Source: an uncultured archaeon
GTDB lineage: Archaea > Asgardarchaeota > Thorarchaeia > Thorarchaeales > Thorarchaeaceae
Direction of reading: 5' to 3'
Assembly (NCBI GenBank): GCA_964558645.1
Contig: CAZLEV010000001.1
Coordinates: 381,568-445,567 of the forward strand
Length of the DNA stretch: 64,000 nt
Both the position numbers and the translations under genes were made by a program. Below the pieces are notes generated by a model. The model did not search any database. It saw nothing but the letters and a program-made list of their open reading frames with translations, and had not been told where the DNA came from. Shown here piece after piece: positions 14,905-31,491 of this stretch. The number at the start of each line of letters is the position of its first letter. Within the stretch, counting starts at the first letter, position 1.

Positions 14905-17900
14905 CTAGTCTATGTCGATGCCAAGACTCTCCAGTAACGCCTTCAGATCAGCCTTTGAGAGGTTCTCGGCCTCTTCAAGTATCGTATCTATCTCATCCGA
15001 TGACATGCCCTTCTTTTCGAGTTTCATCTTCAGGTCCTGAAGTTCCTCCGGTAGGTCTCCGAGGGTCAGTTCTTCTTTGACCTCCAGCTCCTCTACGCCT
15101 GCGAGTTCGTCCGCTCGTCTTGCCTCCTCTTGGATAATGACCTCTTTGATGAATCCCGGTCTCTCACTCGGCTTCATCCTTGCGAGGTCAAGTCTGAAGG
15201 CCTCAATCTCTTCATCGCCTAGGCCAGTAATCTCAGCAAGCCTCTTGAGGAGTTCGTCCACCTCAGGCACAATCGCTCGGATGGTCTCACCTTCTACCTC
15301 CTCCAATGTCTTGGTTACGCCAGAAGGTCGTAGCTCCTCATTTGCAATCTGAAGAATCGTCTTCCTACGAGATGGAACGTCTGCAGGCTTCGGCACTCCT
15401 CCTCGAGCTAGTTTACGAATCATTGCGTTCATTACGCGTACTAGTTTGGGAACGCTCCAGATTCTCACATACAGGAAGAGAAGGGCGGCAAAAAGGATGA
15501 GCCCTATGCTTCCGTAGGTTGTTAGCGCCTGAGTCAGGACTTGTGCCGCAGATGGGTCTGAACGTATCTCGAATTGGATCGATTGAGTTTCATAGAGCTC
15601 CTTTGTGAAGGCGACGCTCATAATAAAGGTACCTGCCTCGTTCACTTGGAGTAGTAGAATGTATGTACCGTTACCTAGAGATTGAAGCCTGTCCGGATAG
15701 TATGTGAGACTGCCAGTCCCAAAGCTCACATCTGGAACTACGTTTTCTATTCCTACTCCGTGGTCTAAGTCCCAATAGGTGATGGTGACCTGGATTGCTG
15801 AGCCCGGTATCGTCTGGACAGTTGTGTTGGATACCATTAATGTGGTACGGATTCTTCGTACATCAAGGTCAATCGTGTGAACGGGGACAGAGTACATGGT
15901 GCCAGTGAAGCTTACTTCTATGGTGTAGAGACCTATGGGGAGGTCACTGGGAACGTTCAATACGAAGCTCCCGTTCCCGAGCTGTGTGAGTTCCGCTTGA
16001 CCAATACCCTCGAAGAAAGCCAGCCCATTCACGTCCGAAATCGTTACCTGTGTCAGGTCATTGACAACTGTCAGAACAGCGCTAGTTCCCTCACCAATGG
16101 GTATCGATAGGCTCTCTGTTCCTTCGACATGAGCAGGCGTTCTAGCCATGGCAAGAATTAGCCTGATCGATGCAGTGTCGTAGTTGTCCAGAGAACCCTG
16201 AATCTGGATTTCATAGTTGCGCGGAACTGTGACATTGATGAACACTGTGACCGTATAAGTTCCATTGGCATCATCAGTGACAAGTCCTGATCCGCCATCC
16301 CAGATAACCACCAGTTCAGCACCGACTACTGGTTGGTTGTTATAGGTGTCATTCAGATACAGTGAGTATGTGACATTGTAGCCATGGTATCCGGATTGAG
16401 TTGACGTGTCTGTTTCGAACTTCGTCGGCAACGGAACAATACTTGCGAGAGACCTCAACTGAGATGTTGAATAACCCTCTCTTGATGCGGTCAATCTCAG
16501 ATAGAGTGTTTGTGAGCCTATTGGAGTTGTGTTGATGTTTGCCCTGTAGCTCCCGTCAGGTTGCTCAATAAGCTCCCCTGACAGAGTACCTAGAGTATAC
16601 GTAAGATTCGCTCCAAGTATCTTCTGGTTGTTGTCTTCGTTCATGTAGTCTACAGATATGACTATTGAGCTACCGTAGTAGACAGTAAGGTGAGTGATGT
16701 CTTCATCTATCTGTAACCTCGTCGGAACTGGCACGATGTTGATATCGACAGAGGTTTCCAAGAATGCGAAGTTTGTTTCTATCGCCCGAACTATCAACTC
16801 GTATTCTCCCAATGGGAACCCTGACATATTTAGACTCACGATGTAGAAGCCTGGTGTTCCGTTATTGGGAACAAGGTAGTCCGTTCCGTTCCACTCGATT
16901 GATACTTCATCTGCAGTGACAGGCTCGTTTCGACCAGTATCATTGAGATAGACCCAGAAAACAAGGTTGGTGTCGGTGACCACATTAAGTATCGATTGTT
17001 CGAGTACTATCTGACCGGTTCCTCTCGATACTGACAGTGTGAATGTTCTCTGTCGTGTCTGATAAAACTCCCGTGATACTGTTATTTGGGGCTGGTAGGT
17101 ACCATAGTCGTTATCACGTGTGTTCAGATACAGCTCGTAGGTGCCGTCCTCGTTGTCCGAGAAGGTGTATTCTGTGTCGTTCCAGACGAGTACCGCATCC
17201 ATGCCTGGTACCAGCGTGCCGTGATAGGGTTCTTCCACTTCAATGATAATATGAACCATACTGCCCCAATCGGCATAATATGTCGTTCTGTCCATCACTA
17301 TCTCAACTGTGAGGGCACCCGGTTGGATGGTAACAGATGCAATACCAGTCGAATAGTTCTCAAGCTGAGCTTGGATCTCGAATGGGTATTTCTGCGCTAT
17401 CAGGCCAGTAGTATTGATTGCGATTTGATAGATGCCTGCAGCAGTTTCTGTTATGGTCACTTCAGTCGCATAGAGCGCTTCCCAGTTGGTCGTTACAAGT
17501 GCGTCACTCAGCACACCTCCATGGTCTGCATCAGTGAATGTTACATTGACTCGGTGAATGTCACCCAATGGTAGCGATCCGAGTGGAGGTGCTTCTGCAC
17601 TAAGCGCAGTCTGTATCAGCCTGATTGTTGCTGGAACATCGGTTGTGGTTCTATTCGAGTAGAATGGTATTCCGGTCTTGCCCATTGTTATGTTGAAGAA
17701 TATGACACCTGCACCTCCAAACTGGGAGGTGGGAATCAGAATCCTGTAGGTTCCTTCACCTATCTCTTCCAAGTAGTAAGTTGCAGAAGTCAGGTTTGTG
17801 AACGAGATTGTTGCAGAGGCATTCTCTATCCCAGCATCAGACAGATAGTCTACAAACTCGAATTCAACAGTGATATTGCTCAATAGAGGAGTTTCGTCAA

Positions 17901-20900
17901 CCAATGGGAACAGTATTTGTGTAGGCCTTTCGGTTGTCGTTGCTTGGGTCGTCTTTTCGCGACTAGCATAGTATGGCTCGACACCGGACTTGTTGACCAG
18001 AAGGCGAATCTCATGAGCAGTAACCAAGTTCTCCGAATCAAGAACCGTAGACTTGAGGCTTATGTGATATACATCTTCTGTCATATCTAGGCTGTATTCG
18101 GCTGAAGTGATTATCGTACTTGTCGGACCATGAAACAGAGTAATGTGTGTCTTATTGATACTAATGACTTGTCCTGTCAGGTAATCGGTGAAACGAAATG
18201 AGAATGTCACGTTTTCTTCGAACGGCGTTTCGCCGGGCGTCTGAGTGATCAATATCTGAGTTGGCCGCTCGACAACTCTTGCGTTTATGAACCTGCCAGA
18301 GGTCGCGTAGTATGGCTCTCCACTCCATGACAGAGTCACATTTAGTGAATAAGTCGCAAGCCCACCGAGAGCTTGAGTTTCAATGCGTATCAGGTAGTCG
18401 CCATTTCCGATATCAGTGAACCAGTAATTGACGCCTGGCTCCAGCGAATCCGTTGAATCATCACAAGAAACAAGCACCGCTGCCCCGCTGATCTGGGTTC
18501 CAGTAGTGTCATCAGAGTACGAGACTGTGAAGCTCACGTTAGTACCATAGGGTGCGGGGTCCGGGCTGTCATAGCCAAGTTGCGTGACTCTATCCAATAT
18601 TGAAAGACTGAGTATCTCTCCGGCATCAGCAGCGAAGTTAGTCCCGTTGTAGACTATGGTGGCGTTGATTATGAAGATGCCAGTTGTGGAGAAGGAGGTG
18701 TTGAGTTTCACCATATAGTGACCGTTTCCTAGTCCTGTAACCGTATACCATCCTTCTAGAGTGGTGTTTAGCATCAAGTTACCTGTCATGCCGGAGCTAC
18801 TGCCTGCAATCAGGTCTGTATAGACAAACTCGATTGATACGTCGTTCCCCCACTGTGGAGGAGTGAACGAGAGATGTGTCAGCTGGGTGCTGCGTAGGGT
18901 CACGGTGATGCCAAATGACTTGCTACTGATCGACGTGTAGTATGGCTCTCCTACCCATGATAGGTTCAGGTGGAGTGTAAAAGTACCCGTACCACCGAGT
19001 GTTGCTGTGTCTATCGCTATTGTGAATGTTCTTGTTCCGGAATCATAATTCAGTGAGTAAATGACGCCGCCTTCATTTAGAGATATGGAGAGAGAACTAG
19101 AATTCTCGATTCTCACACTCGTCAGAGAGTCTATGTAGCCAAACTGGAAGTATGCATCTTCTCCGTATGGCGTGATATCCGCAGATGAGTAATCAACATA
19201 AGTTGGTCTTTCAAGTATGATTAGACTCACTGTCAGAGTCTTGTTCTCATAGAGTGGACTCACGCCCTCGCTCCATTCGAAATCTATTTGGAACTTGAAA
19301 GTACCCACAAGCCCAAAGCGCGATGAATCGAGAGAGAACCTGTAGGTTCCGGGGTTGCCCACGAGCTCTGTTACTTCGAAATCATTTTGCGCCACAGAAT
19401 GTCCGGAGGTTATTGTTGTGATTCTGAGCCAGACGTCTCCTGTGGATGCATTTGAGATGCGAGTTCCATTCACAGCGTCATAGTAGACGACTGTAAACGT
19501 GAAGTTATTCAAGTAGTAGGTTGCTGTTGGCGCTTGTTCAAGATAGAGGTCGGTCGCCGTCCCAAGGACTCTGACTTCCGTCAATATGGTCTGATTGTAG
19601 TACTTCTCCACTGCTCCTATCCACTTTGCTTCTATGGTCAAATCTTTCCATCCGATGCTTCCCCATTGGTCGCTTGCGATCGTGATGTTATAGTGTCCCT
19701 CACCCAAGCTGGATTCAGAGACTGAATATAGGAGATCGAGTACTCCTGAGGAGCTGACCGATATCTGAACGTTTCCGGAGTTGTTGTTGATTCCCGTTCC
19801 CAGATCTGTGTCACGATACTCGACAAGTACGATTATGCTCTGCCCGTAGGGTGTCTGCTCCACAGGGCTATCAAGAACAAATAGCGTGTTATGACTTCGG
19901 ACCTGTACACCAATAGAGAAGGTGTGATTTTGATAATTCTGTCGTCTGACATTGAACTCGACGTTGTAGAACTCATCTGTCCCTGTTATTTCGTCGTCAT
20001 CCTCAGTGAAGATTGTTATCTCATATACTCCATCATCTATCTCGACTACAGTGTAGTTCTGTTCACCGCTCTCGTGGAACGGAGTCCAATTGCAGGTTAT
20101 GTAAGATGCGCCACCTGTTATCGGAACGTCGAGCTCGCTGTCAAACCATGTCAGTGTGAAGGAGTCCGATTCTCCTACAGGAATCGACAATCGGTTGGCG
20201 GAATACGAGACGCGATTGTAGATCTCACGTACCTCCACATATATGACCATTTCAGCAATCTCAACGAAAGGGGCATTTGCTTGAACTAGCACAGGATATT
20301 CATCCAGAGGCACTGTTGAGCTATCAAGGTCGATTCTATATACTCCCAATCCCTGTTCGGTCACAGTGTAAGACTGGCTCCAGTTAGACGTGACAAGTGC
20401 TCCCACTATCCCGGTTCCGTTCACGTTCTTGAAGGAAACGTTGAAGCTTTGGTCGCTCCCTATTGCTCCGGATATTCCCGGGTATTGTGGTGATTCAAGT
20501 GTTGAAGCATAATTCACATTGAGCGTGATGGTGGCCTGGGCAGCATCGTAACTACTCTTCGACCAAGTGAGATCCACATCATATTGTCCCTTTCCGGGAA
20601 GCATGGATGTGTCCAGTACTTTGGTGTACTCGCCGTTGCCGCTGTCATCAAATGAATCTGCACCGTCATACCATGAATACTGTAGATTGCCCCCAGGAAC
20701 TAAGATGTCACTATCGGTGTCATTGGCCTCTACGATAAGAAGAACAAGGTCTCCGAAGGTTACGTTGGTGGTCCATGTGCCCACTGCATCATCTGGGTAG
20801 CTGATTACTAGCTCAGAGGAGTGAGTCACTGTGAAGGGCCTTCTGAAGAATCCAGTGTTTTGCCATTCGCCGTTTGCGGCCAAGTCATTAGTAGATGCCT

Positions 20901-22644
20901 GAACCATCCAACTTCCTGCCGAAGAGTTGCTGCCTGCGAGGTTGAAGAAGGGCGTGGTTGCATAACCTGTTCCATCTGCAGTGGCATTGACAGAGTACAT
21001 CTTGACTCCAGCAGGGTCGTAGATTGTGATATTGACAATGGCGTCTTGGAATGTGCTCCCAACATAAGCACGGACACGGGTGCTATTTCCTGCCCTCAAG
21101 TCAGTCGTCCGTTTCCAAGAGGTATCATTGGGATCATATAACTCCAAATCTTGAATCATGTTGGGCGCTGACGAGCGAATTCTCCAGTAACCGTAGCGAC
21201 CTGCCTCTGTAGCTACATCATAAGCTGATACATTGAGATAGCCGTTTCCGGGCTGACCGCCATTCCATCCAGAAGTGAGGTTTGTCGACGGCGCTAGGGG
21301 TTTCGCTACGAAGAACACATCTCTATTCAGAGGAATCGTCTGATTGAAGTAGTATCTGTTGACGTAGCCCGTTGGAATTGCGGCATAGAAATAGGTCGTG
21401 TAGTTCACTTCAGTTGCATTCTGCACCACATATCTCTGCCCGTAAGAATTGGGACTTATCTCATATACCGTGGGTATATCAAGGCGTCTTGCAAACATGT
21501 TGCTCTCGACATCGAACTCAACGATTATCTTGCGATTCGGGTCTGGGTTGGTTGGTGTTGGACTCCATGTGAAGTTGAGCACCACAGGATCATCGGTCCA
21601 AGGTGAATCAGCCATCTCGGTTACATAACCGGAACCGTATCCCGGGGCAGAGCTGACACTGATACCGTTCATTGCAAGACTCACGTCAGAAGGTGCTGCT
21701 CTTGTCTTGACATAGAGTTCGAAGTTGTCAACTTTGGCTCTTGGTCCAATCTCGGGGTCATAACCCACAGATGCCTTACTCCAGAGTCCTATCTCGACGT
21801 TAACATCCTGGTCTGCAGGTAGACTGAATATGTCAGGGGAAACATCGGTGAGTCCCGAGTCATACCATGTTTCTTCAGCATCTATGTCGGTGAAGACCTT
21901 CTGCCAGACCTGTGAACCTTCAATGTTCAGATAGACGGCAAATGAGCCGGTCATTCCATAGTGGGTATCATCTTGGGTATCAGCCCAGTAGTCTGTTCTG
22001 AATGCGGCCCATACAACTTGCCCTCTAGGTATGGACATGGTCTGGGTCACATAGGCACGGTCGCCTTGATCATAGTAGAACGGTGCACTCGCTGAGTTGG
22101 AATCTATCTCGAAGTCGAAGGTACCATCTCCCGCCCCACGACCCGATGAGTTGTATGATGATATTGGTGTGCTGTATGAACCGACGTCCGTCAAGCCTGC
22201 CGTCCAGTCTGAGATGGTCGGTTCGCTGTTGAAATCCCAGTTCCTTACCCAAGACCTGTTCTCTGTCAACTGGGATATCTGTGCTTCAACACGGTATCCT
22301 TCCCACCCGCTTCCGGTAGGAACACTGACGTTTGTTCCTGTTGTAGTGTTCGATGCAAGATACGTCATCAGCTTGTTCCGGAAGTGGTCTGTTGCATTCC
22401 CGAACTCACTACTGATCAGCGGATCTGTAGTACCTACCCATTCCAGACTACCTTGTTCGCTAACGACGAATTTGTGAAGCAACTCCCCAGGCTCCACGTC
22501 AACAGTCTGTCCATTGCCAACATCCACAGGAATGCCCTTGGTGAGATCAGGTTCAATAGCTGATAGGCTATTCAGATTTGAGAGTATTGGGACAAGGAAC
22601 AGGAATACAACTGCGAATGTTGGGATTAGTCTGCGTCTATTCAT
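14905..22644 (-). CDS. Giant membrane-anchored cell-surface protein A (2579 aa; Ig-like repeat stalk, single TM, cytoplasmic tail)
   Basis: N-terminal signal peptide. Many ~100-120 aa beta-rich repeats (Y.D...G.I..A....W...G.G.Y.I..T), abundant N-x-S/T sequons, TM YGSIGLILFAALLFLY, then a ~190-aa charged helical tail. Confidence 0.9.
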   Translation of the reverse strand: MNRRRLIPTFAVVFLFLVPILSNLNSLSAIEPDLTKGIPVDVGNGQTVDVEPGELLHKFVVSEQGSLEWVGTTDPLISSEFGNATDHFRNKLMTYLASNTTTGTNVSVPTGSGWEGYRVEAQISQLTENRSWVRNWDFNSEPTISDWTAGLTDVGSYSTPISSYNSSGRGAGDGTFDFEIDSNSASAPFYYDQGDRAYVTQTMSIPRGQVVWAAFRTDYWADTQDDTHYGMTGSFAVYLNIEGSQVWQKVFTDIDAEETWYDSGLTDVSPDIFSLPADQDVNVEIGLWSKASVGYDPEIGPRAKVDNFELYVKTRAAPSDVSLAMNGISVSSAPGYGSGYVTEMADSPWTDDPVVLNFTWSPTPTNPDPNRKIIVEFDVESNMFARRLDIPTVYEISPNSYGQRYVVQNATEVNYTTYFYAAIPTGYVNRYYFNQTIPLNRDVFFVAKPLAPSTNLTSGWNGGQPGNGYLNVSAYDVATEAGRYGYWRIRSSAPNMIQDLELYDPNDTSWKRTTDLRAGNSTRVRAYVGSTFQDAIVNITIYDPAGVKMYSVNATADGTGYATTPFFNLAGSNSSAGSWMVQASTNDLAANGEWQNTGFFRRPFTVTHSSELVISYPDDAVGTWTTNVTFGDLVLLIVEANDTDSDILVPGGNLQYSWYDGADSFDDSGNGEYTKVLDTSMLPGKGQYDVDLTWSKSSYDAAQATITLNVNYASTLESPQYPGISGAIGSDQSFNVSFKNVNGTGIVGALVTSNWSQSYTVTEQGLGVYRIDLDSSTVPLDEYPVLVQANAPFVEIAEMVIYVEVREIYNRVSYSANRLSIPVGESDSFTLTWFDSELDVPITGGASYITCNWTPFHESGEQNYTVVEIDDGVYEITIFTEDDDEITGTDEFYNVEFNVRRQNYQNHTFSIGVQVRSHNTLFVLDSPVEQTPYGQSIIVLVEYRDTDLGTGINNNSGNVQISVSSSGVLDLLYSVSESSLGEGHYNITIASDQWGSIGWKDLTIEAKWIGAVEKYYNQTILTEVRVLGTATDLYLEQAPTATYYLNNFTFTVVYYDAVNGTRISNASTGDVWLRITTITSGHSVAQNDFEVTELVGNPGTYRFSLDSSRFGLVGTFKFQIDFEWSEGVSPLYENKTLTVSLIILERPTYVDYSSADITPYGEDAYFQFGYIDSLTSVRIENSSSLSISLNEGGVIYSLNYDSGTRTFTIAIDTATLGGTGTFTLHLNLSWVGEPYYTSISSKSFGITVTLRSTQLTHLSFTPPQWGNDVSIEFVYTDLIAGSSSGMTGNLMLNTTLEGWYTVTGLGNGHYMVKLNTSFSTTGIFIINATIVYNGTNFAADAGEILSLSILDRVTQLGYDSPDPAPYGTNVSFTVSYSDDTTGTQISGAAVLVSCDDSTDSLEPGVNYWFTDIGNGDYLIRIETQALGGLATYSLNVTLSWSGEPYYATSGRFINARVVERPTQILITQTPGETPFEENVTFSFRFTDYLTGQVISINKTHITLFHGPTSTIITSAEYSLDMTEDVYHISLKSTVLDSENLVTAHEIRLLVNKSGVEPYYASREKTTQATTTERPTQILFPLVDETPLLSNITVEFEFVDYLSDAGIENASATISFTNLTSATYYLEEIGEGTYRILIPTSQFGGAGVIFFNITMGKTGIPFYSNRTTTDVPATIRLIQTALSAEAPPLGSLPLGDIHRVNVTFTDADHGGVLSDALVTTNWEALYATEVTITETAAGIYQIAINTTGLIAQKYPFEIQAQLENYSTGIASVTIQPGALTVEIVMDRTTYYADWGSMVHIIIEVEEPYHGTLVPGMDAVLVWNDTEYTFSDNEDGTYELYLNTRDNDYGTYQPQITVSREFYQTRQRTFTLSVSRGTGQIVLEQSILNVVTDTNLVFWVYLNDTGRNEPVTADEVSIEWNGTDYLVPNNGTPGFYIVSLNMSGFPLGEYELIVRAIETNFAFLETSVDINIVPVPTRLQIDEDITHLTVYYGSSIVISVDYMNEDNNQKILGANLTYTLGTLSGELIEQPDGSYRANINTTPIGSQTLYLRLTASREGYSTSQLRSLASIVPLPTKFETDTSTQSGYHGYNVTYSLYLNDTYNNQPVVGAELVVIWDGGSGLVTDDANGTYTVTVFINVTVPRNYEIQIQGSLDNYDTASIRLILAMARTPAHVEGTESLSIPIGEGTSAVLTVVNDLTQVTISDVNGLAFFEGIGQAELTQLGNGSFVLNVPSDLPIGLYTIEVSFTGTMYSVPVHTIDLDVRRIRTTLMVSNTTVQTIPGSAIQVTITYWDLDHGVGIENVVPDVSFGTGSLTYYPDRLQSLGNGTYILLLQVNEAGTFIMSVAFTKELYETQSIQFEIRSDPSAAQVLTQALTTYGSIGLILFAALLFLYVRIWSVPKLVRVMNAMIRKLARGGVPKPADVPSRRKTILQIANEELRPSGVTKTLEEVEGETIRAIVPEVDELLKRLAEITGLGDEEIEAFRLDLARMKPSERPGFIKEVIIQEEARRADELAGVEELEVKEELTLGDLPEELQDLKMKLEKKGMSSDEIDTILEEAENLSKADLKALLESLGIDID

Positions 22645-25600
22645 TCTGCATCCCCTCCTAGTTGGTCAAGAAGAGCATCTATCTCCGCTTTGGAGAGGTT
22701 CCTAGCTTGTTCTATCATCAGTTCGGCTTCTGCTCCGTCAATGCCCATCTCAACGAGTCTCTCCCGTAGATGATCCAGTTCTTCCTCGGTGAGTTTCCTC
22801 TCTAGGTCTAGTGTTTCCTTCTCTGGTTCGGCAAGTTTCTCTGCCTCCACAATGTCCTTGGCACGTCGTGCACGTTCTTGTTTTAGGACTTCGCTGATGA
22901 AGCCTGCACGTTCACTGGGCCTCATCTTCTCAAGATCTCCTCTTAGCGTGTCTACATCTTCAGGTGCCAATCCGACAACAACAGCGAGCTCTTTCAAGAG
23001 TTCTTCAATATCAAGAATGGATATGTCAACGGTTGAGGGCGCAACATCGGCCGACCCTTTCACAACTCTCACCGGCCGCAAATCCTCGTTCATCATATCA
23101 ATGATCACCTGTTTTCTGTTACGGACAGGAGCTGGCTCAGGTATCTTCCCTCTAGATAGCTGTCGGACCATCGCTCTGATTCTCCTCAGCATCTTGGGAA
23201 CTGACCAAACCCGAATGTAGGCTGCTGCAAAGGCGACAAGGCCAAGAATGGCAAGCGCCAGATAGCCGAAGCTTGTATAGAGGGCCTGTTGCTCAGGACT
23301 GAGTGTGACGTATACGATACCAGAATACGTGCTGGACTCGTAGTTGGTCTTGTTCAGTTGAATCCTGTACTCGTAACCCTGCACGTTAGTTCCTACGAAA
23401 GCGAACACATACGTGCCATTCCCGAAGTCGATAGATGATTCTGGCAATACCTGAAGTGATGTTCCAGATGTTGAGTTGACAGCCATGGGAATCCCTGTTT
23501 CATGGTCGACATCCCAGTATGTTACTCTCACGAATACTGTCTGACCTGAGAATACTGTGCCCGGCGGAGGTGTGACTTGTAGTTCAGTCCTGATCTGTCT
23601 GATAGTCATCTCCACAATGATCTCTCCCCTACTGTAGTTCCCCCGAGTGAATGTAACTCGTATTATGTATGGATTCTCGCGAACGTCGAGTGACTGAATA
23701 CCTGACTCAACGGCCCCGAATCGGTATGACCCATTTCCTAGGTTTGTGAGTGGGTCGGCACCGAATTCCCAGATCGCAGTTGCCGTAGCATCTGTGACTA
23801 GAACGTGGTTCAAGGTATCATTGAATTGGAACAACTGTGTGTAGTCATCACTTACAGGGATGTCAACCTCTAGTGTTCCTATCACTTCTGTTGGAATGGG
23901 CAAGACTCGCAGTTTCACCGAGCTATAACCAAACTCATAGCGGGTCTTCTGGAATGAAACAGATATGTCGTATGGAATGATACCCGCTTGAACTAATGAG
24001 GTATCCAGGGTGAAGGAATAGGTGCCGTTTTCTCCCTCAAGAAGTATTCCGGTGTAGTCGCCAATGGTAAATGATGTTGTTGCATCTTCAACACTCATTG
24101 AATTTGTCTCATCCCAGAATGAAAACGAGAATGTCGCCAATTGTCCGTAGTAGACGTCTTGAGAAGCATCAGTGAGGATCTCAACTGTCGTCCGAATCCT
24201 TGTGACTGTTAGTGTGAATTGGAGTGACGCAGAAGCATACCCGTCTTTGGTGCTTGACACTCTCAAGATGTACTCTTGGATGGCTAATTCGGTCGTGTTC
24301 ACCAGAGCGTAATACCACCCATCCTCAATCTCGGAGAGATTACCGGAGATGCCTGATATGCTGTAGATCAGGTTGGCACCTGTTACCCCCGTGCCAAGAT
24401 CTGTATTGTTTAGGTGGACAGTGATATTCGCAAGAGCTCCTGCAACGGCGCTTAGCACTGTCCGTCCGTCAACGGGTGTGATTTCTGTATTTATCTCTCG
24501 AACCTCAATCGTAAGCTGGATGCTGATACTCTTGTAGTTTGTAGAGGTTGCTTGGACTTGAATCTGATAGTTGCGTATACTAACTCCTTCGATTGTGAAA
24601 TGGCCGACATATCTTGAGAGGGTGGAGTTCCAAATCAAGATGCCAGAGCCTCCCGTCCAAGCAAATGAAAGCGAGCCGTCTGGGATGACAGTGTCATTGG
24701 CTTGGATTAGGTATTGCGCTTCAATAGTGACATTCTGCCCATTCACGACCACCAATTTGTCGAGAGCCCCGGTAAGACGGGCGGGAACCTTGGATATTCG
24801 TACTTGGAATTCCCTCTGTCTAGATTCGTAATTGGCGAGAGCGAAGCTTATCGAGAGCGTGTATTCTCCTGCGTTATAGGCCAGCGTCGACAGATTCAGT
24901 GAGTAGGCACCGTTTTCGATCTCGATCATCGCAAACGTGTCTGACAGGACCGTTAGGTTGACGTTTCCGCCAACAACACCAGTGCCATTTCTTGCATTCG
25001 TGACGTTTACATTGATTGTGACAATTGTTCCCCATTCTGGACTCTCGGGATGAGCATCCAAATCGATGTCAACAGGAAGGGCTGCCAGAACTATGTCCGC
25101 CGTTATCGTCCTGTTGTAGTGGAGATATGATGAAGCATATACTTCGAAGGGGTACTCTCCAGCATCTAGAGGCCGTGTGTCAATGGTGAGGTAGTATACT
25201 CCACCGACGCCTTCTAGTATTGTGGCTGTAGAGCCGTAGAGTGACTGCCAGTTTGTCGTGACATTTGCTCCTTCGATACCAAGACCTGTGTTTATGCTTG
25301 TGAAAGTAACATTCGCCTCAAGGGTGTCGCCAAGATAGTATGTAACACCTGTTGGAACAACAAGAGCGAGCTCTGTTGACACGGGATTCAATGTGATACT
25401 GAATGACAGTTGGGTCTTATTCTGATAGAAGGGGGTTCCCAACCAGGTGAAGTTCGCAGAAAAGCGATACTTGCCGAGGGTTGGAAACTCGGTTGTGTTT
25501 ATCCTAACTTCATAGGATCCGTCAGCACCGACGAGAACCCAGTACTCGATTACTGACACATTCGAACAAGATACTGTGACTTCGGCTCCGGATATCCCGT

Positions 25601-28600
25601 TTCCTGTCAGATAGTCCGTGTATTTCAAAACGGCGGTTGCATTGTAGAATATGTCTGCAGGGGGAGTTGAGAGAACACTGGCTTGAGTGAGCCTCTGGGT
25701 GATAGTTGCTTCTGTGGAGGTACTAGAGTTGGCATAGAATGGTATTGAATCGCCCCAGAAGAACTTGACAGAGACTGGATGTTTGCTTACCAGTTCGGAT
25801 ACGAGCAACGTGGACTGGATCGAGATCGAGTATACCCCATTGGTGCCAGAGAGTGAGTACTGGCTGCTGGTGAGCGTTTCGCCTGCTCCATGGCCGAGAA
25901 GGAGTTCCAGTTTGCTCAGGGATATCCCCGAACCATCGAGATCATCTGTGACTGTTATTTCGAATGTGACGTTCGAAAGATATGGGGTGTTGAGTGGCGA
26001 TTTTGATATGGTAATCGTTGCGGGTCGGCGAGATACCTCTACTTCAGCTGTTCTGGTTCTATTCTGGTAGTACGGGCTCCCGGTATAGCTTGCTTCAATC
26101 GCTATAGAATAAGTGCCGAATCCGCCAAGTGCCTCAGTAGAGATTCTGACTCTGTACTGACCATCTCCAAGATAATCAACGAAGTAGTTCACACCCAGTT
26201 CTAGGGGTTCATAAGATGAACTGCATGATGCAAGGATGGTCGCATCTGGTATACCTTCGTCGGTGTTATCATCAGAGTACGTTACTGTGATGTTTGCCTG
26301 TGTGAGATAGGGTGCCAGATCTGGAAGGTCACTCGTTAGTTGTGCCCTTCTTCTTGTGACCGTGAGATAGAAGTAGTCGCCTGCGTCCTGACAGTATCTG
26401 CTTCCGCCGTAAATGATGGTCACATTTATTGTGAAAGTGCCCAATGTTTCCAATGCACTTGTGTTAAGGACGACTGTGTAGGTTCCGTCCAGATTGTCAT
26501 AAGATGTGTAATTTCCCTCGAGTGAGGCATCAAGCGTGAGAGTGCCTCCCTGCATGCCCGTACTGGTGAAGTCATCCAAGTCTGTGTAAGTGAATAACAG
26601 GGTAAGATTGTTTGCAAACTGTATCGGCCCATATGCTCCGTGAGTGAGCTCAGTGAATCTTTCTCTCACTGTGATAGGAATCTCTACAGATGTTCTGTTT
26701 TGGTAGAAAGGCTCGCCAGTCCATGTGAAATTCAAGTGGAATGAGTGACTTCCGGGTATCCAAGAAGAGGTATCAATCTCTATGAAGAATGTTCCAGTTC
26801 CATCTCCTTCGTAGTAAATGGTGTATCCTATTACCTCTTGAATCGAAAGGTAGAGGGTCGATGCATTTAGAATTGCCTCTCCTAATAGAACATCCCTGTA
26901 GACTACGGTCAGGTTCACGAGCTCATCATATGGCACTGTAGGAAGTGGTGTCCAGTCAACATTAGTCTGCCGCTGTGTCGTATAGACCGTGATTATGAGG
27001 GTCTGATTCTCGTACAGCGGGAGTTGACCTTTTGTCCAGTTGAACTGAATCCGCAAGTCGCAGGAAATGAGCCCACTGAGATAGGATGTGTCGAACTCGA
27101 TCTGGTACTCTCCTGGATTATTGACAGGATCGAGTTCCGTTATGACCATGAGGCCTTGAGATAGGGCCTGGCCAGCTGTCAACACATCGATGTATAGGTG
27201 AACATTGAATGGATATGAGCCAGTTGCGTTCACTATCCCCGTGTCATTTGCGACATCGTAATATATCACGCTGAATGTGAGATTCTCTCCGTATGGTGTC
27301 ATGACTGGATTTTGTCCAATGAAGATGTCAGTCGGGGTACTCGTGATTCTCACACTTGTTGTAACGGTCTCATTGGAGAACTTGACTGTAGGTCCAGTCC
27401 AGTTAGCGTAGATGATCAGGTCTTTTGTTCCAGTGGAACCCCACTGGCTTGCAGGTAGTGATATAATGTATTCTCCTGATTGGGTTCCATTCGCCACATC
27501 ATAGATGATTGATGGGAACCCTGGGCTCTCAACGTATATCAAGGCATTAGAGCCAACAATCCCGGTATCCGCATCTACGTCATAGTAGACAACAGATATG
27601 ACAACATCTGCTGTGTACGGTGTCGGGTCGATTGGGTTTGTAAGATAGAATGATGTGAGATGGGTTCTAAGCTGCACCTTCACATTGAACGTATGATTTT
27701 GGGCGCCGTATTTCTTAACATTGAACTCCACTGTGTACGTGTCAAGAATGTCATCATCCAGCGAGTACAGATCGACACGATAGACTCCGGGTGTGGCCGT
27801 TTCTGTGACATTGTAATCATCGAAGGTATAGCCATGGAGTGCTGACCAGTTGCAAGTTATGGCATCAGCTGAGTCCGTGATTGGCTGGTCATGATCCGTG
27901 TCAGTATAGGTTATGGTGAATGAGGTTGTGTATCCCACTGGAAGTGACAGCTGGCTTGTTGAGGGAATGGCCGATGTAAACAACTCGCGTACTTCTAGAG
28001 AGAGGACAATCGTGCGTGATTCGTAGTAGTCCTTTGCGGCAGTGATGGCAACATCATACTCGCCGATGCTGACTCCGTCAGTGCCCAGTGTCAGAGTGTA
28101 ATAGCCCGGATTTCCTGTCTGTGGTGCTACGGAGTAGCTGTCATGTGTCCAATCCGTAGTGATCTGTGCGTCAGTTATGGGGTCCCCTTTTTGGTCCTTG
28201 AACTGCACTGTCATCTCGGCGTCGTAACTCATGGGAACGTCTACTCCTGGAGCATCAGGAGAGAGAAGGTCCGTAGTGTAGATGGCGTTGATGATGAAGT
28301 TTCTCGACAATGGGTCATAGAAGTCCTTGTTCCACTCGAGAGAGACGTTGAACGCACCGTTTGATGCAAGCTCTCCCGTGTCCAGTGTTATGCTATACTC
28401 TCCCGTTCCCAGATCATTCATCGTTCCCGACCCGGCAGCCCAAGAGTAGGTCATAACACCCCCGGCAAGCAGATCTGTGTTATCAGCATCTTGGACTCTT
28501 AGCTGCAGAAGAATCAGGTCACCATGAGTCACATTTTTCGTCCACGTTGCTGCAGACCCAACTGGATACTTAACGCTCATGTCAGTGGAGTGTGTTACGC

Positions 28601-31319
28601 TGAACTTCCTTCTGAAGAAGCCGACATTATGGACTGCAGATCCTGAATTCTGATCTGTAACAAATGCTTGGACTTCCCAGTTTCCCACTGATGCGTTGTA
28701 AGGGTTAAGGTTAACGAACTCGGTGACTGCATATCCAGAGCTGTTCACGGTAGCCTGAAGGGATGTCCAGAGCGTGCCATTAGGCAGATATACCGAGAAA
28801 TAGACAATATCTGAGGCGTAGTCTGGCGCGAGAGATACCATGAACCGAGTATCATCATCTGCTCTGAAGTTATTTGTGATGAGCCAAGATGTCGTATATT
28901 CATCCCAAACCTTCAAGCTATCGATTATGTTGGGCGAAGATCCCTTTAGGTACCAGAAGCCGTTTTGGGCACTGGTCGTTATGTCATAGACTGAAACGTT
29001 TAGAGAACCGTCGCCTGGTTCTCCCAAACTCCAACCGGATGTGAGATTATCCAAGCGATAACTTGGCTCTCCCACATGATCTATATCTCGGTTTTCCGGT
29101 ATTGAAACATTGAAGAAGAAGCGATTCTCATAGCCGCCCGGGACAGCAGCGTAGTGGTTCGTGTCCCACCTTATGTCGGTACTATTTTGGGCGAGATAGT
29201 TATCACCATTTGTGAAGGTTTCCGTCTCAGATACAGTCTGTATATCGTATCTTCTTGCAAAGGCAGTCACGAGAACGTCGATCTCAACTGTTATCTCCTC
29301 ATCCGGGTCTGGAGGATTGGGAGTTGGGGTCCATGAGAAGTTGGCGTATACACTGCCCTCAGTCCATGGGGTTGACGGTCGATATGAAACAGTTCCAAGT
29401 CCCAGGATGGGAGTTGACCCCTCAAGTACATTTGAAACATCTTCCCCATTCATCTGTAAATTGATTGATTCAGGAGCCGCCTTGGCTTTTATATAGACGG
29501 CAATATTGTCAAAACGCCCCTCAGGCTTGATGTCGTCTGTTCGATACCATTCAGAATCAGTCACTCGCAGTCCAACCATAATCGAAACATTGGGGAGTGT
29601 GAAATAAGCGGGATCGGTCGGAATCAAACCGGTTGAGTACCAAGTGTTATCATCAGCAATCCCATCAAACGCCATATTCCAGAGATAGTCTCCTCCTTCG
29701 TCTGGGTCACCGACAGTCACGAACAGCTCAAAGAATCCTGTTGGATTGTAGTTCTCCCACCATCTCCCACGGATATCGGCATAGTAGTCAAGTGAAACTC
29801 CGGCCCAAGTGATTTCTCCTCGGTCTATCGTAATGTCTTGTTGGATAAACGCCTTGTCACCAGGATTATACCAGAAACCATAGAGTCCTCCCTCATTTCT
29901 GTGATAATATCCATCTATCATCGCTGTCGCAGCAGCGTCGCCGTCTCCTCCATTTGGCATCCGTCTTGCTATCTTGCGGGTGGTCCCGCTTCTCTCACTT
30001 GTGAATACATAATCAGATCCGTTAAGGGCTATCCCGTAGTTGAATCTGAATTGACCATTACCGCTTCCATCAGAACCCCACTGACCTAGATATGAACCCG
30101 TTGAGGAGAAGTACTGCACTCTGTCGTTCCCAACGTCTGCGACGTAGATGGTGCCGCCTGAGCTTACTGCGACCCCCACTGGAGTCCTGAAGTATCCATT
30201 TCCTCCACTACCATAAAACGAATTCTGGCTACCGACTAGACTCTGGTAGCTACCCGTTGAGCTGAACCTCTGTACTCTGCAGTTGCTAGTATCTGAAACA
30301 ATGATCTCGTCGTTGTTTTGGTTGATTGCGATGCCCGTTGGGCGACGGAGCTGCCCTGTACTTGTTCCGGTTCCTCCAAATTGCCCCTGATAGACCCCGT
30401 GCATATTGAAATACTGTACTCTATCATTGCCCATGTCGGCGACATAGACGTATCCGTTCGAGTTGCGGATTGCAACTCCCATCGGACCGTGGAATTCGGA
30501 TGCTACTTCCCCTGTGCTTCCCCACTGGCTGACGTATTGGCCTTGAGAATCAAAGAGTTGGATTCTGTCATTCCCAGAATCTGCAACATACACATGTCCG
30601 GTCGAGTTGATTGCGATGCCAGTCGGATAACTGAACTCACCATCCCCCGTGCCTGCACTTCCCCATTGAAACTGAAAGGTACCCGTGGCATCGAAGACCT
30701 GTATTCGATTATTGTAACTGTCAGCAACGTAGACATGACCAGAGCTGTTAATGGCAATCCCCCAGGGATCGGTGAAATTACCGCTTTCGCTGCCCCTTGC
30801 TCCCCACTGGCCCTGGTAACCGCCACCAGAAGTGAAGTATTGGACTCTGTTGTTTCCGTTGAAGGCCCCCTCGAGTTGGGAGCTTCCATACACCCAGGCG
30901 CCAGATTCCTCGAAGTCGTTGTTTACTAACCATGTGCGATTCTCAGTGATGCTTGTCAAATTCCCGAAGACCTCATAGCCCTCCCAGTTGTCGCCTAGTG
31001 GAACCGACAGGTTTGCAGTTGTGGTAGTTCCTGAGGGATGATAGACCATCTGTTCACTTGAGAACGAATCGGTGCGTTTACCATATTCTGATGCGATGAG
31101 TGGATCTCCAATACCTGTTACTTGATCTGGAGCAGAAGCTATTTCATACTTCATGAGTACTTCGTCTGGGCCCACGTGTATTTGGGTTCCATCATCAAGC
31201 GTTACCGTTTCACCTTCAGCCTGGTTCCATCCAAGTCCCAAGTCGGGGAACAGACTAGTGGAACTAAACAACAGGGAAACAATAGCCACGAATACTAGTA
31301 TTGTCTTTCGCTTCTGCAT
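22641..31319 (-). CDS. Giant membrane-anchored cell-surface protein B (2892 aa) with NHL beta-propeller; paralog of protein A
   Basis: Same architecture as A, plus about six NHL repeats (GxGxGxF..P.GIA......VYVAD.GNDRVQ.F). Its stop overlaps the start of A by 4 nt. Confidence 0.92.
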   Translation of the reverse strand: MQKRKTILVFVAIVSLLFSSTSLFPDLGLGWNQAEGETVTLDDGTQIHVGPDEVLMKYEIASAPDQVTGIGDPLIASEYGKRTDSFSSEQMVYHPSGTTTTANLSVPLGDNWEGYEVFGNLTSITENRTWLVNNDFEESGAWVYGSSQLEGAFNGNNRVQYFTSGGGYQGQWGARGSESGNFTDPWGIAINSSGHVYVADSYNNRIQVFDATGTFQFQWGSAGTGDGEFSYPTGIAINSTGHVYVADSGNDRIQLFDSQGQYVSQWGSTGEVASEFHGPMGVAIRNSNGYVYVADMGNDRVQYFNMHGVYQGQFGGTGTSTGQLRRPTGIAINQNNDEIIVSDTSNCRVQRFSSTGSYQSLVGSQNSFYGSGGNGYFRTPVGVAVSSGGTIYVADVGNDRVQYFSSTGSYLGQWGSDGSGNGQFRFNYGIALNGSDYVFTSERSGTTRKIARRMPNGGDGDAAATAMIDGYYHRNEGGLYGFWYNPGDKAFIQQDITIDRGEITWAGVSLDYYADIRGRWWENYNPTGFFELFVTVGDPDEGGDYLWNMAFDGIADDNTWYSTGLIPTDPAYFTLPNVSIMVGLRVTDSEWYRTDDIKPEGRFDNIAVYIKAKAAPESINLQMNGEDVSNVLEGSTPILGLGTVSYRPSTPWTEGSVYANFSWTPTPNPPDPDEEITVEIDVLVTAFARRYDIQTVSETETFTNGDNYLAQNSTDIRWDTNHYAAVPGGYENRFFFNVSIPENRDIDHVGEPSYRLDNLTSGWSLGEPGDGSLNVSVYDITTSAQNGFWYLKGSSPNIIDSLKVWDEYTTSWLITNNFRADDDTRFMVSLAPDYASDIVYFSVYLPNGTLWTSLQATVNSSGYAVTEFVNLNPYNASVGNWEVQAFVTDQNSGSAVHNVGFFRRKFSVTHSTDMSVKYPVGSAATWTKNVTHGDLILLQLRVQDADNTDLLAGGVMTYSWAAGSGTMNDLGTGEYSITLDTGELASNGAFNVSLEWNKDFYDPLSRNFIINAIYTTDLLSPDAPGVDVPMSYDAEMTVQFKDQKGDPITDAQITTDWTHDSYSVAPQTGNPGYYTLTLGTDGVSIGEYDVAITAAKDYYESRTIVLSLEVRELFTSAIPSTSQLSLPVGYTTSFTITYTDTDHDQPITDSADAITCNWSALHGYTFDDYNVTETATPGVYRVDLYSLDDDILDTYTVEFNVKKYGAQNHTFNVKVQLRTHLTSFYLTNPIDPTPYTADVVISVVYYDVDADTGIVGSNALIYVESPGFPSIIYDVANGTQSGEYIISLPASQWGSTGTKDLIIYANWTGPTVKFSNETVTTSVRITSTPTDIFIGQNPVMTPYGENLTFSVIYYDVANDTGIVNATGSYPFNVHLYIDVLTAGQALSQGLMVITELDPVNNPGEYQIEFDTSYLSGLISCDLRIQFNWTKGQLPLYENQTLIITVYTTQRQTNVDWTPLPTVPYDELVNLTVVYRDVLLGEAILNASTLYLSIQEVIGYTIYYEGDGTGTFFIEIDTSSWIPGSHSFHLNFTWTGEPFYQNRTSVEIPITVRERFTELTHGAYGPIQFANNLTLLFTYTDLDDFTSTGMQGGTLTLDASLEGNYTSYDNLDGTYTVVLNTSALETLGTFTINVTIIYGGSRYCQDAGDYFYLTVTRRRAQLTSDLPDLAPYLTQANITVTYSDDNTDEGIPDATILASCSSSYEPLELGVNYFVDYLGDGQYRVRISTEALGGFGTYSIAIEASYTGSPYYQNRTRTAEVEVSRRPATITISKSPLNTPYLSNVTFEITVTDDLDGSGISLSKLELLLGHGAGETLTSSQYSLSGTNGVYSISIQSTLLVSELVSKHPVSVKFFWGDSIPFYANSSTSTEATITQRLTQASVLSTPPADIFYNATAVLKYTDYLTGNGISGAEVTVSCSNVSVIEYWVLVGADGSYEVRINTTEFPTLGKYRFSANFTWLGTPFYQNKTQLSFSITLNPVSTELALVVPTGVTYYLGDTLEANVTFTSINTGLGIEGANVTTNWQSLYGSTATILEGVGGVYYLTIDTRPLDAGEYPFEVYASSYLHYNRTITADIVLAALPVDIDLDAHPESPEWGTIVTINVNVTNARNGTGVVGGNVNLTVLSDTFAMIEIENGAYSLNLSTLAYNAGEYTLSISFALANYESRQREFQVRISKVPARLTGALDKLVVVNGQNVTIEAQYLIQANDTVIPDGSLSFAWTGGSGILIWNSTLSRYVGHFTIEGVSIRNYQIQVQATSTNYKSISIQLTIEVREINTEITPVDGRTVLSAVAGALANITVHLNNTDLGTGVTGANLIYSISGISGNLSEIEDGWYYALVNTTELAIQEYILRVSSTKDGYASASLQFTLTVTRIRTTVEILTDASQDVYYGQLATFSFSFWDETNSMSVEDATTSFTIGDYTGILLEGENGTYSFTLDTSLVQAGIIPYDISVSFQKTRYEFGYSSVKLRVLPIPTEVIGTLEVDIPVSDDYTQLFQFNDTLNHVLVTDATATAIWEFGADPLTNLGNGSYRFGAVESGIQSLDVRENPYIIRVTFTRGNYSRGEIIVEMTIRQIRTELQVTPPPGTVFSGQTVFVRVTYWDVDHETGIPMAVNSTSGTSLQVLPESSIDFGNGTYVFAFVGTNVQGYEYRIQLNKTNYESSTYSGIVYVTLSPEQQALYTSFGYLALAILGLVAFAAAYIRVWSVPKMLRRIRAMVRQLSRGKIPEPAPVRNRKQVIIDMMNEDLRPVRVVKGSADVAPSTVDISILDIEELLKELAVVVGLAPEDVDTLRGDLEKMRPSERAGFISEVLKQERARRAKDIVEAEKLAEPEKETLDLERKLTEEELDHLRERLVEMGIDGAEAELMIEQARNLSKAEIDALLDQLGGDAE
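29993..30860 (-). repeat. NHL repeats (about 6 blades) within protein B
   Basis: ~47-aa periodic units such as PWGIAINSSGHVYVADSYNNRIQVF, PTGIAINSTGHVYVADSGNDRIQLF and PVGVAVSSGGTIYVADVGNDRVQYF. Confidence 0.9.
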
Positions 31320-31491
31320 AGCATTTTCACCGGCAAGTTTCGCTTGACGAAGCTCGGATAACCACTGGATAGCTGGGTTTGTCCTCTCTTCTCAATGATG
31401 CAGTGTAATCCGTACAGTCTTTTTAATAATGTCATCATCTTGTCGTTCCCTAAAAAGAACGTTCTGTCATTTTTTCGAAACGTGATACAGT

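Follow-up and report, generated by a model that had tools for sequence, protein, structure and literature searches.

A conserved, translationally coupled pair of giant paralogous membrane proteins that probably builds a tall cell-surface coat or fibre in Thorarchaeia

The window analysed here is a 64,000-nucleotide stretch of contig CAZLEV010000001.1 (assembly GCA_964558645.1, positions 381,568 to 445,567) from an uncultured archaeon of the family Thorarchaeaceae. Its minus strand carries two adjacent giant genes, referred to below as B (the upstream member) and A (the downstream member), whose predicted products of roughly 280 to 310 kDa each combine an N-terminal head, a stalk of immunoglobulin (Ig)-like modules, one transmembrane helix and a cytoplasmic tail. 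The features of the pair, in window coordinates, are as follows.

22641-31319, minus strand: gene B (P0001), 2892 aa, predicted giant type I membrane glycoprotein, upstream member of the pair
14905-22644, minus strand: gene A (P0002), 2579 aa, predicted giant type I membrane glycoprotein, downstream member of the pair
22641-22658, minus strand: coupling junction, with GGAGG at 22654-22658, the A start codon (ATG) at 22642-22644 and the B stop codon (TGA) at 22641-22643
23316-28550, minus strand: B stalk of 17 Ig-like modules, aa 924-2668 (custom hidden Markov model, HMM)
15565-20784, minus strand: A stalk of 17 Ig-like modules, aa 621-2360 (custom HMM)
22644-23285, minus strand: predicted B transmembrane helix (approximately aa 2679-2703) and cytoplasmic tail (aa 2704-2892)
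14908-15528, minus strand: predicted A transmembrane helix (approximately aa 2373-2399) and helical cytoplasmic tail (aa 2400-2579)
29925-30824, minus strand: NHL beta-propeller insert in the B head, approximately aa 166-465 (Pfam NHL, E = 9.9e-39)
21700-22263, minus strand: beta-jelly-roll in the A head, resembling carbohydrate-binding modules (CBMs) and MAM domains, aa 128-315 (AlphaFold2 model and structural alignment)
20824-21165, minus strand: MG2-like beta-sandwich of A, aa 494-607 (structural alignment; weak Pfam MG2)

The first-pass annotation of this stretch had described two open reading frames (ORFs) of 2892 and 2579 aa, overlapping by 4 nt and colinear along their length, each with a signal peptide, a common head of about 600 aa, a long run of Ig-like repeats, a single transmembrane segment and a tail. 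Both ORFs and the 4-nt overlap (ATGA) are present, and BLASTP of B against A bore out the colinearity by returning a single colinear alignment with 875 identities in 2441 columns (36%) and 3% gaps. A and B are colinear paralogs. Hydropathy analysis gave one N-terminal, signal-like hydrophobic segment and one C-terminal, transmembrane-like segment in each protein, the latter followed by 184 to 191 residues, and the custom HMM resolved the repeat run into 17 modules of approximately 100 aa per protein. The description of the heads held in part. The four motifs said to mark them (DPLI.SE.G, VP.G..WEGY.V, G.W....S.PN.I and GFFRR.F.VTHS) all occur in both translations, but the heads are not simply alike, because B carries an NHL propeller insert of approximately 300 aa. 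The two proteins of the pair contain 2 and 6 Cys residues, and GC content is even across the locus (0.47 to 0.50).

At the junction of the two genes, the stop codon of B and the start codon of A share the sequence ATGA at 22641-22644. The GGAGG that precedes the A start is encoded by the Gly-Gly codons of the conserved C-terminal "...GGxxE" of B; the C terminus of A ("...SLGIDLD") has no Gly-Gly motif. Thirteen intact junctions were taken from other genomes, representing 11 genera and a second family, and 11 of them had the same 4-nt overlap as the window; the two exceptions were G020, with 1 nt of overlap, and G016, with a gap of 4 nt. In 13 of 15 junctions (the window included), spanning 11 genera, a GGAGG or comparable purine-rich box was located 8 to 9 nt before the A start. 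The translational coupling proposed in the first-pass annotation is therefore supported by an overlap and a Shine-Dalgarno-like GGAGG that are both conserved across genera.

The A head (residues 190 to 720) was searched in 81 Thorarchaeia genomes and was found in 55 of them, including 21 of the 24 high-quality ones. Obligate pairing across Thorarchaeia had been put forward earlier as a check on the pair, with single or unlinked homologs as the outcome that would speak against it. Wherever both heads were on one contig (35 of 35 genomes), they were immediate neighbors on one strand, B always preceding A, with a head-to-head distance of 7.1 to 7.85 kb and the weaker, B-type match upstream. Apparent splits over two contigs were ORFs truncated at contig ends, and in G001, G007 and G040 a B-type tail was found directly upstream of A on the contig of A. 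No intact unlinked copies, and no intact member alone on a complete contig, were seen in the Thorarchaeia genomes searched. The pairing check was thus passed: genetic linkage of A and B is obligate in this set, and the outcome that would have spoken against the pair did not arise. Since linkage, overlap and Shine-Dalgarno-like box are all conserved and intact unlinked copies were not seen, co-production and joint function of A and B are well supported.

The pair is also duplicated and lost as a unit. In G022 (loci L023 and L024, G022:C22:1-31500), the whole pair is duplicated in tandem to give the order B-A-B-A. In G005 (96% complete, genus g5; L025, G005:C51:109700-129699), the pair is deleted, so that the genes that flank it in the window, encoding tyrosyl-tRNA synthetase (TyrRS) and the protein P0003, are neighbours. 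A relic of approximately 220 nt at G005:C51:127140-127361 matches the first 80 positions of the head profile and contains an internal TAG.

The stalk HMM, iterated from one stalk module, detected exactly 17 modules of 92 to 122 aa in each protein. In 14 of 17 cases module i of A was closest to module i of B, which indicates that the array is older than the gene duplication and has undergone no turnover since. Among 24 A and B sequences from 12 genomes, the window's own included, 17 modules were detected in 22, and the remaining 2 gave 16 modules across the same span; for B alone, 11 of 12 sequences had 17 modules and the twelfth had 16 over an equal span. Lengths of A-type proteins stay within 2552 to 2600 aa at 40 to 60% identity. 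A module number that has been frozen at 17 in two paralogs over long evolution suggests a precise geometric constraint. Identity to the reference was approximately 0.5 to 0.6 along the entire ectodomain, with peaks in modules R4 to R9 and in the tail and a minimum in the membrane-proximal modules R11 to R17, a profile suggesting that the stalk is more than a mere spacer. The stalk HMM built here matched no Pfam family, the stalk sequence had no match in the PDB, and no cadherin family was matched at E<=0.1 in the Pfam scan of A and B. Near-identical, variable-number repeats of the Bap/RTX/Big type were not encountered in the stalks, whose modules are individually diverged and fixed in number at 17.

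A and B are predicted to be Sec-type, sequon-rich type I membrane proteins. N-x-S/T sequons number 68 in B and 65 in A, 2.3 to 2.5 times the composition-based expectation, and just one per protein lies after the transmembrane segment. The position of nearly all sequons before this segment fits an N-glycosylated ectodomain followed by a cytoplasmic tail. The combination that marks archaeal surface layer (S-layer) glycoproteins, a secreted, sequon-rich ectodomain with a membrane anchor, was accordingly found in both proteins. The tails are net acidic (41 to 42 D+E versus 28 to 32 K+R in 184 to 191 residues) and are among the best conserved parts of the proteins. The tail of A (approximately 185 aa) was modeled as ten helices in small bundles, with a predicted local distance difference test score (pLDDT) of 86.9 and a predicted template-modeling score of 0.44.

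No convincing relative of the tail was found by Pfam (E<=5), PDB sequence search, Foldseek against the PDB, or structure and feature searches of the ESM atlas. Exhaustive structural alignment (VIA wide) gave a best Z of 7.4, against generic three-helix bundles and in the range of any small helical bundle, and sub-threshold matches to the small three-helix families RuvA_C, SAP, RecX_HTH1 and Pex14_N are taken as leads only. When a profile of the transmembrane helix and tail was compared with 1.84 billion representative proteins, 162 matches were obtained, all of them C-terminal, in proteins of up to approximately 5500 aa; the source names of tail members were Thorarchaeota, Hermodarchaeia and the generic "Promethearchaeota." The tail profile (A3) was also run across 201 genomes of the phylum. 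It matched the A and B tails themselves with E values of approximately 1e-64 to 1e-67 and detected the tail in 42 of 43 genomes of the window's family as well as in the window's own genome, in the one genome of the sister family (1/1) and in all 19 genomes of one further family (E approximately 1e-50), with only weak matches elsewhere. Thorarchaeia genomes contain 3 to 15 tail-bearing ORFs each, of 2000 to 6200 aa. By these profile searches, the tail defines an Asgard-restricted family of giant proteins that is confined to a few lineages and matches no known family.

The domain-wise AlphaFold and Foldseek analysis suggested in the first-pass annotation resolved the head region of A into a jelly roll, an MG2-like domain and an Ig/FN3-like module, while matches of the whole model were generic. 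The AlphaFold2 model of A residues 28 to 715, built from 27 homologues, is all-beta with a mean pLDDT of 86.7. Within it, aa 128 to 315 (model residues 101 to 288) aligned with the CBMs 4d0q, 8zqf and 2zew at VIA Z scores of 11 to 12.6; for several CBMs the root mean square deviation (rmsd) was approximately 3 Å over 130 to 170 residues, and the matched modules include binders of hyaluronan, alginate and xylan. A match at Z 10.6 was obtained to the MAM domain of RPTPmu (2c9a). In the model, therefore, the A head contains a beta-jelly-roll fold of the CBM/MAM-like type, and the heads are predicted to be lectin-like and may bind glycans. Residues 494 to 607 of A (model residues 467 to 580) aligned with MG2 of human alpha2-macroglobulin (2p9r) at Z 10.3 and an rmsd of 2.2 Å over 93 residues; an MG2-like domain is placed between head and stalk in both A and B. 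The corresponding Pfam MG2 score of 24 bits is under the 32.8-bit cutoff, and the Pfam scan of A and B gave no TED, A2M or thioester match of the alpha2-macroglobulin/complement family. Model residues 582 to 686 form the Ig/FN3-like module. With the whole model, Foldseek returned Eph, RPTPmu and the Nitrosopumilus and Haloferax S-layer proteins, all at low template-modeling scores (TM-scores).

In B only, Pfam NHL (PF01436) was matched with E = 9.9e-39 and 129.9 bits against a cutoff of 20, in four stretches covering approximately 300 aa; an NCBIfam ScyF NHL match scored under its cutoff, and Pfam recognized nothing beyond this NHL match in B and the sub-threshold MG2 in A. The propeller interrupts the jelly roll of B and is therefore best described as an insertion into the head, which accounts for the greater length of B relative to A. 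By lineage, the upstream ORF is either approximately 2880 to 2916 aa or 2568 to 2650 aa long. The insert is present in g1, g6, g8, g10, g11 and some g9 genomes and absent from the other g9 genomes, g4, g12, g13, g14, g15 and f2, a patchy distribution that suggests repeated gain, loss or exchange. Distant relatives of the head were also observed on shorter proteins of approximately 1190 to 1755 aa (G015:C195:2759-8222, G039:C89, G010:C59 and G044:C312), and in G015 two such proteins adjoin each other.

Other giants of the tail family also occur as conserved tandem pairs, one type (p1) with approximately 4100 aa followed by 3180 aa and another (p2) with approximately 5200 to 6200 aa followed by 4000 aa; examples of such pairs are found at G014:C1:423428-433852, G024:C6:35584-47726 and G012:C13:30159-42247. 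In a tree of 61 tails, A and B formed sister clades, and the p1 members and the p2 members formed separate sister groups, indicating that the pairs arose by repeated, independent tandem duplication rather than from an ancient alpha/beta split. The possibility that each pair combines one member of an ancient alpha tail class with one of a beta class was rejected, as every pair type is its own sister duplication. Repeated duplication is compatible with heteromers having evolved repeatedly from homomers, or with a plain duplication legacy.

The window's own genome encodes a third tail-bearing giant approximately 370 kb away (L010 3877-18779, plus strand, corresponding to G000:C1 at approximately 22.9 to 37.8 kb). 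An N-gap in the assembly, with a duplicated repeat at its edges, interrupts this protein of approximately 5000 aa, whose heads are DUF2341 and two Laminin_G_3 domains. Its stalk modules are of the same kind as those of A and B and its version of the tail is longer, suggesting that lectin-type heads on Ig-like stalks with this tail are recurrent in the family. In P0169, P0170, P0173, P0106, P0130, P0136 and P0150, the last helical unit of the tail (approximately 50 aa) is amplified to about four tandem copies, which suggests a modular docking unit. In P0175 (341 aa), which has no obvious transmembrane helix, the central tail module follows an N-terminal domain that is unrelated.

Upstream of B lies the third gene of the locus.

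31492-33669, minus strand: P0003, 725 aa, with a signal-like N terminus, an HExxHxxGxxH motif and a C-terminal transmembrane segment (from the translation)

In 29 genomes the P0003 orthologue is the immediate upstream neighbor of B, and in 7 it is located elsewhere; the HExxHxxGxxH motif was present in all 14 orthologues fetched. Searches of Pfam, NCBIfam, PDB sequences and the atlas gave no match to P0003, which by motif and linkage alone is a putative membrane-anchored zincin. P0003, B and A, in this order, thus appear from gene order to form a conserved three-gene module. The spacer between P0003 and B (31320-31491, minus strand, 172 nt) contains an A/T-rich box, TTATTAAAAA, approximately 120 nt before the ATG of B, and this box is a possible separate promoter. 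The neighbors scanned (TyrRS, a lipid/glycan operon, P0003 and a histidine kinase) are housekeeping or metabolic, and the position of the pair between TyrRS and P0003 is identical in three genera. The gene for the GAF-PAS-PAS histidine kinase (33926-35953) precedes P0003 and, like it, is on the minus strand, and a VIT-VWA domain protein of 639 aa is encoded at 42961-44880 (minus strand). In G029, a P-type cation ATPase gene is located between P0003 and B.

Taking these data together, we propose that A and B probably build a tall cell-surface coat or fibre jointly. Ribosomes that end translation of B would re-initiate on A, from which we infer near-equal production of the two proteins. Outside the cell they would then co-assemble, giving one tall hetero-oligomeric structure in which the less conserved modules R11 to R17 form a membrane-proximal pillar, and the better conserved distal half (head and R1 to R10) makes lateral or ligand contacts. 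Such a structure may be an S-layer-like canopy or may consist of discrete fibres presenting glycan-binding heads tens of nanometers from the membrane, with the common tail docking a cytoplasmic partner. For this whole chain, from coupled synthesis in near-equal amounts through co-assembly to distal lectin-like heads and docked tails, our confidence is evenly balanced between acceptance and doubt. That coupling reflects a physical 1:1 heterodimer is something that we only infer. S-layer subunits were named in the first-pass annotation as the alternative that would speak against such a pair, and this alternative gains weight from the colossal S-layer protein PySLP described below, whose organization the A/B conservation profile resembles; by that analogy, a canopy would be no less plausible than discrete fibres of the integrin type. 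A canonical S-layer is made less likely by the deletion of the pair in G005, by the large folded tail and by the absence of an ordered S-layer in "Ca. Lokiarchaeum ossiferum."

A head-head complex prediction (B 30 to 625 with A 28 to 335, each with its own alignment) scored 0.00 against a mark of 0.32 and gives no verdict either way. Several observations weigh against joint assembly into such a structure. At least one lineage (G005) can dispense with the pair; other tail-bearing giants could substitute for it. In G029 (L026, G029:C3:352000-371999), B has three frameshifts and A is intact, which fits A working alone; the frameshifts are not statistically distinguishable from random assembly error, so this B could be a real pseudogene or an assembly error. 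As A/B, p1 and p2 each derive from a separate tandem duplication, adjacency could partly be a legacy of duplication. A folded tail of 185 aa is atypical of S-layer anchors, that of PySLP being short and basic. Finally, "Ca. L. ossiferum," the sole Asgard archaeon whose cell envelope literature was checked, lacks a highly ordered S-layer and has complex protruding surface proteins instead (PMC9834061).

These same protruding proteins, which form no ordered lattice (PMC9834061), would suit a discrete, integrin-like 1:1 heterodimer in which A and B run in register along their 17-module stalks, contact partner cells and signal through their tails. The equal and invariant module numbers, the module-by-module A/B correspondence, the conserved translational coupling, the conserved folded tails and the lectin-like heads all point in this direction. 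On the other hand, no interface was identified, the Pfam scan found no integrin or cadherin domains, and the other tail-bearing pairs are unequal in length (approximately 4100/3180 and 5200 to 6200/4000 aa), so that in-register pairing is no general rule of the family. We regard this arrangement, in essence the one put forward in the first-pass annotation, as doubtful. Alternatively, A and B could be paralogous adhesins or lectin receptors that act independently, each with its own ligand specificity, co-transcribed only because of a tandem duplication and making no contact with each other. The repeated origin of tandem pairs in the tail family, the patchy NHL insert that distinguishes the heads and the possibly broken B of G029 would be expected in that case. 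What makes it unlikely is that 11 genera and a second family share the gene order, the overlap and the Shine-Dalgarno-like box, that no genome was seen with one intact member alone on a complete contig, that the pair is duplicated and lost as a unit and that the repeat number is frozen in both proteins, unlike in typical adhesins.

The most specific form of the heterodimer, an obligate transmembrane fibre tens of nanometers long with tips that bind glycans of partner cells and tails that dock a cytoplasmic scaffold, for instance cytoskeleton or membrane-remodeling machinery, we consider quite improbable. Scarcely credible is the suggestion that the pair is cargo of a mobile element of the aloposon type, as are tandem giant genes of Heimdallarchaeum. 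The aloposon integrates at a tRNA gene downstream of the giants and has four upstream genes, including one for a MinD/ParA ATPase (Wu et al. 2022, PMC8813620). The entire 64-kb window contains no tRNA, no MinD/ParA-type gene was found among the neighboring ORFs scanned, GC content is uniform (0.47 to 0.50), and the chromosomal site between TyrRS and P0003 is conserved in three genera. With no tRNA in the window and conserved synteny, the mobile tandem-giant explanation was rejected.

Giant Ig-repeat surface proteins as such are of an already known kind. As far as our literature searches reach, the class-wide, translationally coupled paralogous pair, its frozen 17-module stalks and the orphan tail family of a few Asgard lineages are new; these searches found no paper describing the A/B family and no Thorarchaeia cell-envelope structure. 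In models of eukaryote origin, the way in which Asgard cells make contact with their syntrophic partners is a central issue. The pair is widely kept in Thorarchaeia (21 of 24 high-quality genomes by its head), making it a prime candidate for the main coat or the contact fibres. Archaeal surface proteins do not usually have a folded cytoplasmic tail, and this one offers a handle on whether Asgard cells couple their surface to the cell interior, with a module that is Asgard-restricted and amplified up to four-fold in some paralogs. If the heterodimeric fibre were true, the closest archaeal relatives of eukaryotes would have evolved, independently, an outside-in link comparable to that of integrins.

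Among the closest known systems is PySLP, the "colossal" S-layer protein of Pyrobaculum arsenaticum, which has 2667 aa, a signal peptide, 19 Ig-like domains and a C-terminal transmembrane segment and which forms an S-layer that reaches 37 nm above the membrane, its distal region making the lattice and its proximal region serving as a pillar (bioRxiv 10.64898/2026.08.21.746120). PySLP resembles A and B in size, signal peptide, non-canonical N-terminal domains, Ig-like domains, sequons and C-terminal transmembrane segment, and the A/B conservation gradient matches its distal contact region and membrane-proximal pillar of canonical Ig domains. It differs in forming homo-hexamers of one protein, in its short basic cytoplasmic tail and in its 14 Cys residues, whereas A and B are a coupled paralog pair with folded tails of 185 aa and with 2 and 6 Cys residues. 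NmSLP of Nitrosopumilus maritimus (8C8L) and csg of Haloferax volcanii (7PTP), both beta-sandwich arrays, were among the top Foldseek matches to the A head model and, like A and B, are glycosylated surface proteins. Their TM-scores of only 0.13 to 0.14 indicate that the likeness is one of generic multi-Ig architecture, and both are much shorter, without a cytoplasmic domain and without a lectin-like jelly-roll head. SlaA and SlaB of the Sulfolobales (8QOX) provide a case of two co-encoded proteins making one envelope layer. The structural match of 8QOX to the MG2/Ig region is weak (Z 11.1, but rmsd 21 Å); SlaA and SlaB are mutually unrelated and only SlaB is membrane anchored, whereas A and B are paralogs and both are anchored.

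The integrin alpha/beta subunits, Eph and RPTPmu share with A and B a type I topology, a large ectodomain, one transmembrane segment and a cytoplasmic tail, and the Eph and RPTPmu ectodomains (jelly-roll/MAM with Ig/FN3) were among the top Foldseek architecture matches to the A model. The B head carries a beta-propeller, which may be likened to integrin organization. The Pfam scan of A and B gave no match to the integrin FG-GAP propeller or to VWA/betaI, and cadherin, kinase and phosphatase domains were not found in family searches of the two proteins. The organizational analogy to integrin and cadherin pairs drawn in the first-pass annotation is thus retained for type I topology but does not extend to integrin or cadherin domains; unlike integrin subunits, A and B are paralogs of each other, and the likeness is organizational only.

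The repeats of giant adhesins are typically near-identical and variable in number, and many of these proteins are exported by type I secretion. Bacterial fibrillar giant adhesins (e.g., the large adhesion protein extender, 6XI3) are like A and B in having a head-stalk-anchor layout with a CBM-like distal module and a long Ig-like stalk. A and B differ from them in having 17 diverged modules, fixed in number, followed by a transmembrane helix and a cytoplasmic domain. For Asgard archaea, Wu et al. 2022 (PMC8813620) tabulated giant proteins of more than 3000 aa, linked the giants of Heimdallarchaeum to the aloposon mobile elements and mentioned in passing adjacent giant paralogous genes in Thorarchaeota metagenome-assembled genomes. 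The A/B pair is unlike the Heimdallarchaeum giants in occupying a stable chromosomal locus, with no tRNA in the window and no ParA among the neighbors scanned. The tandem giants of that study do resemble the tail-bearing pairs described here, of which the tail search gives several per genome.

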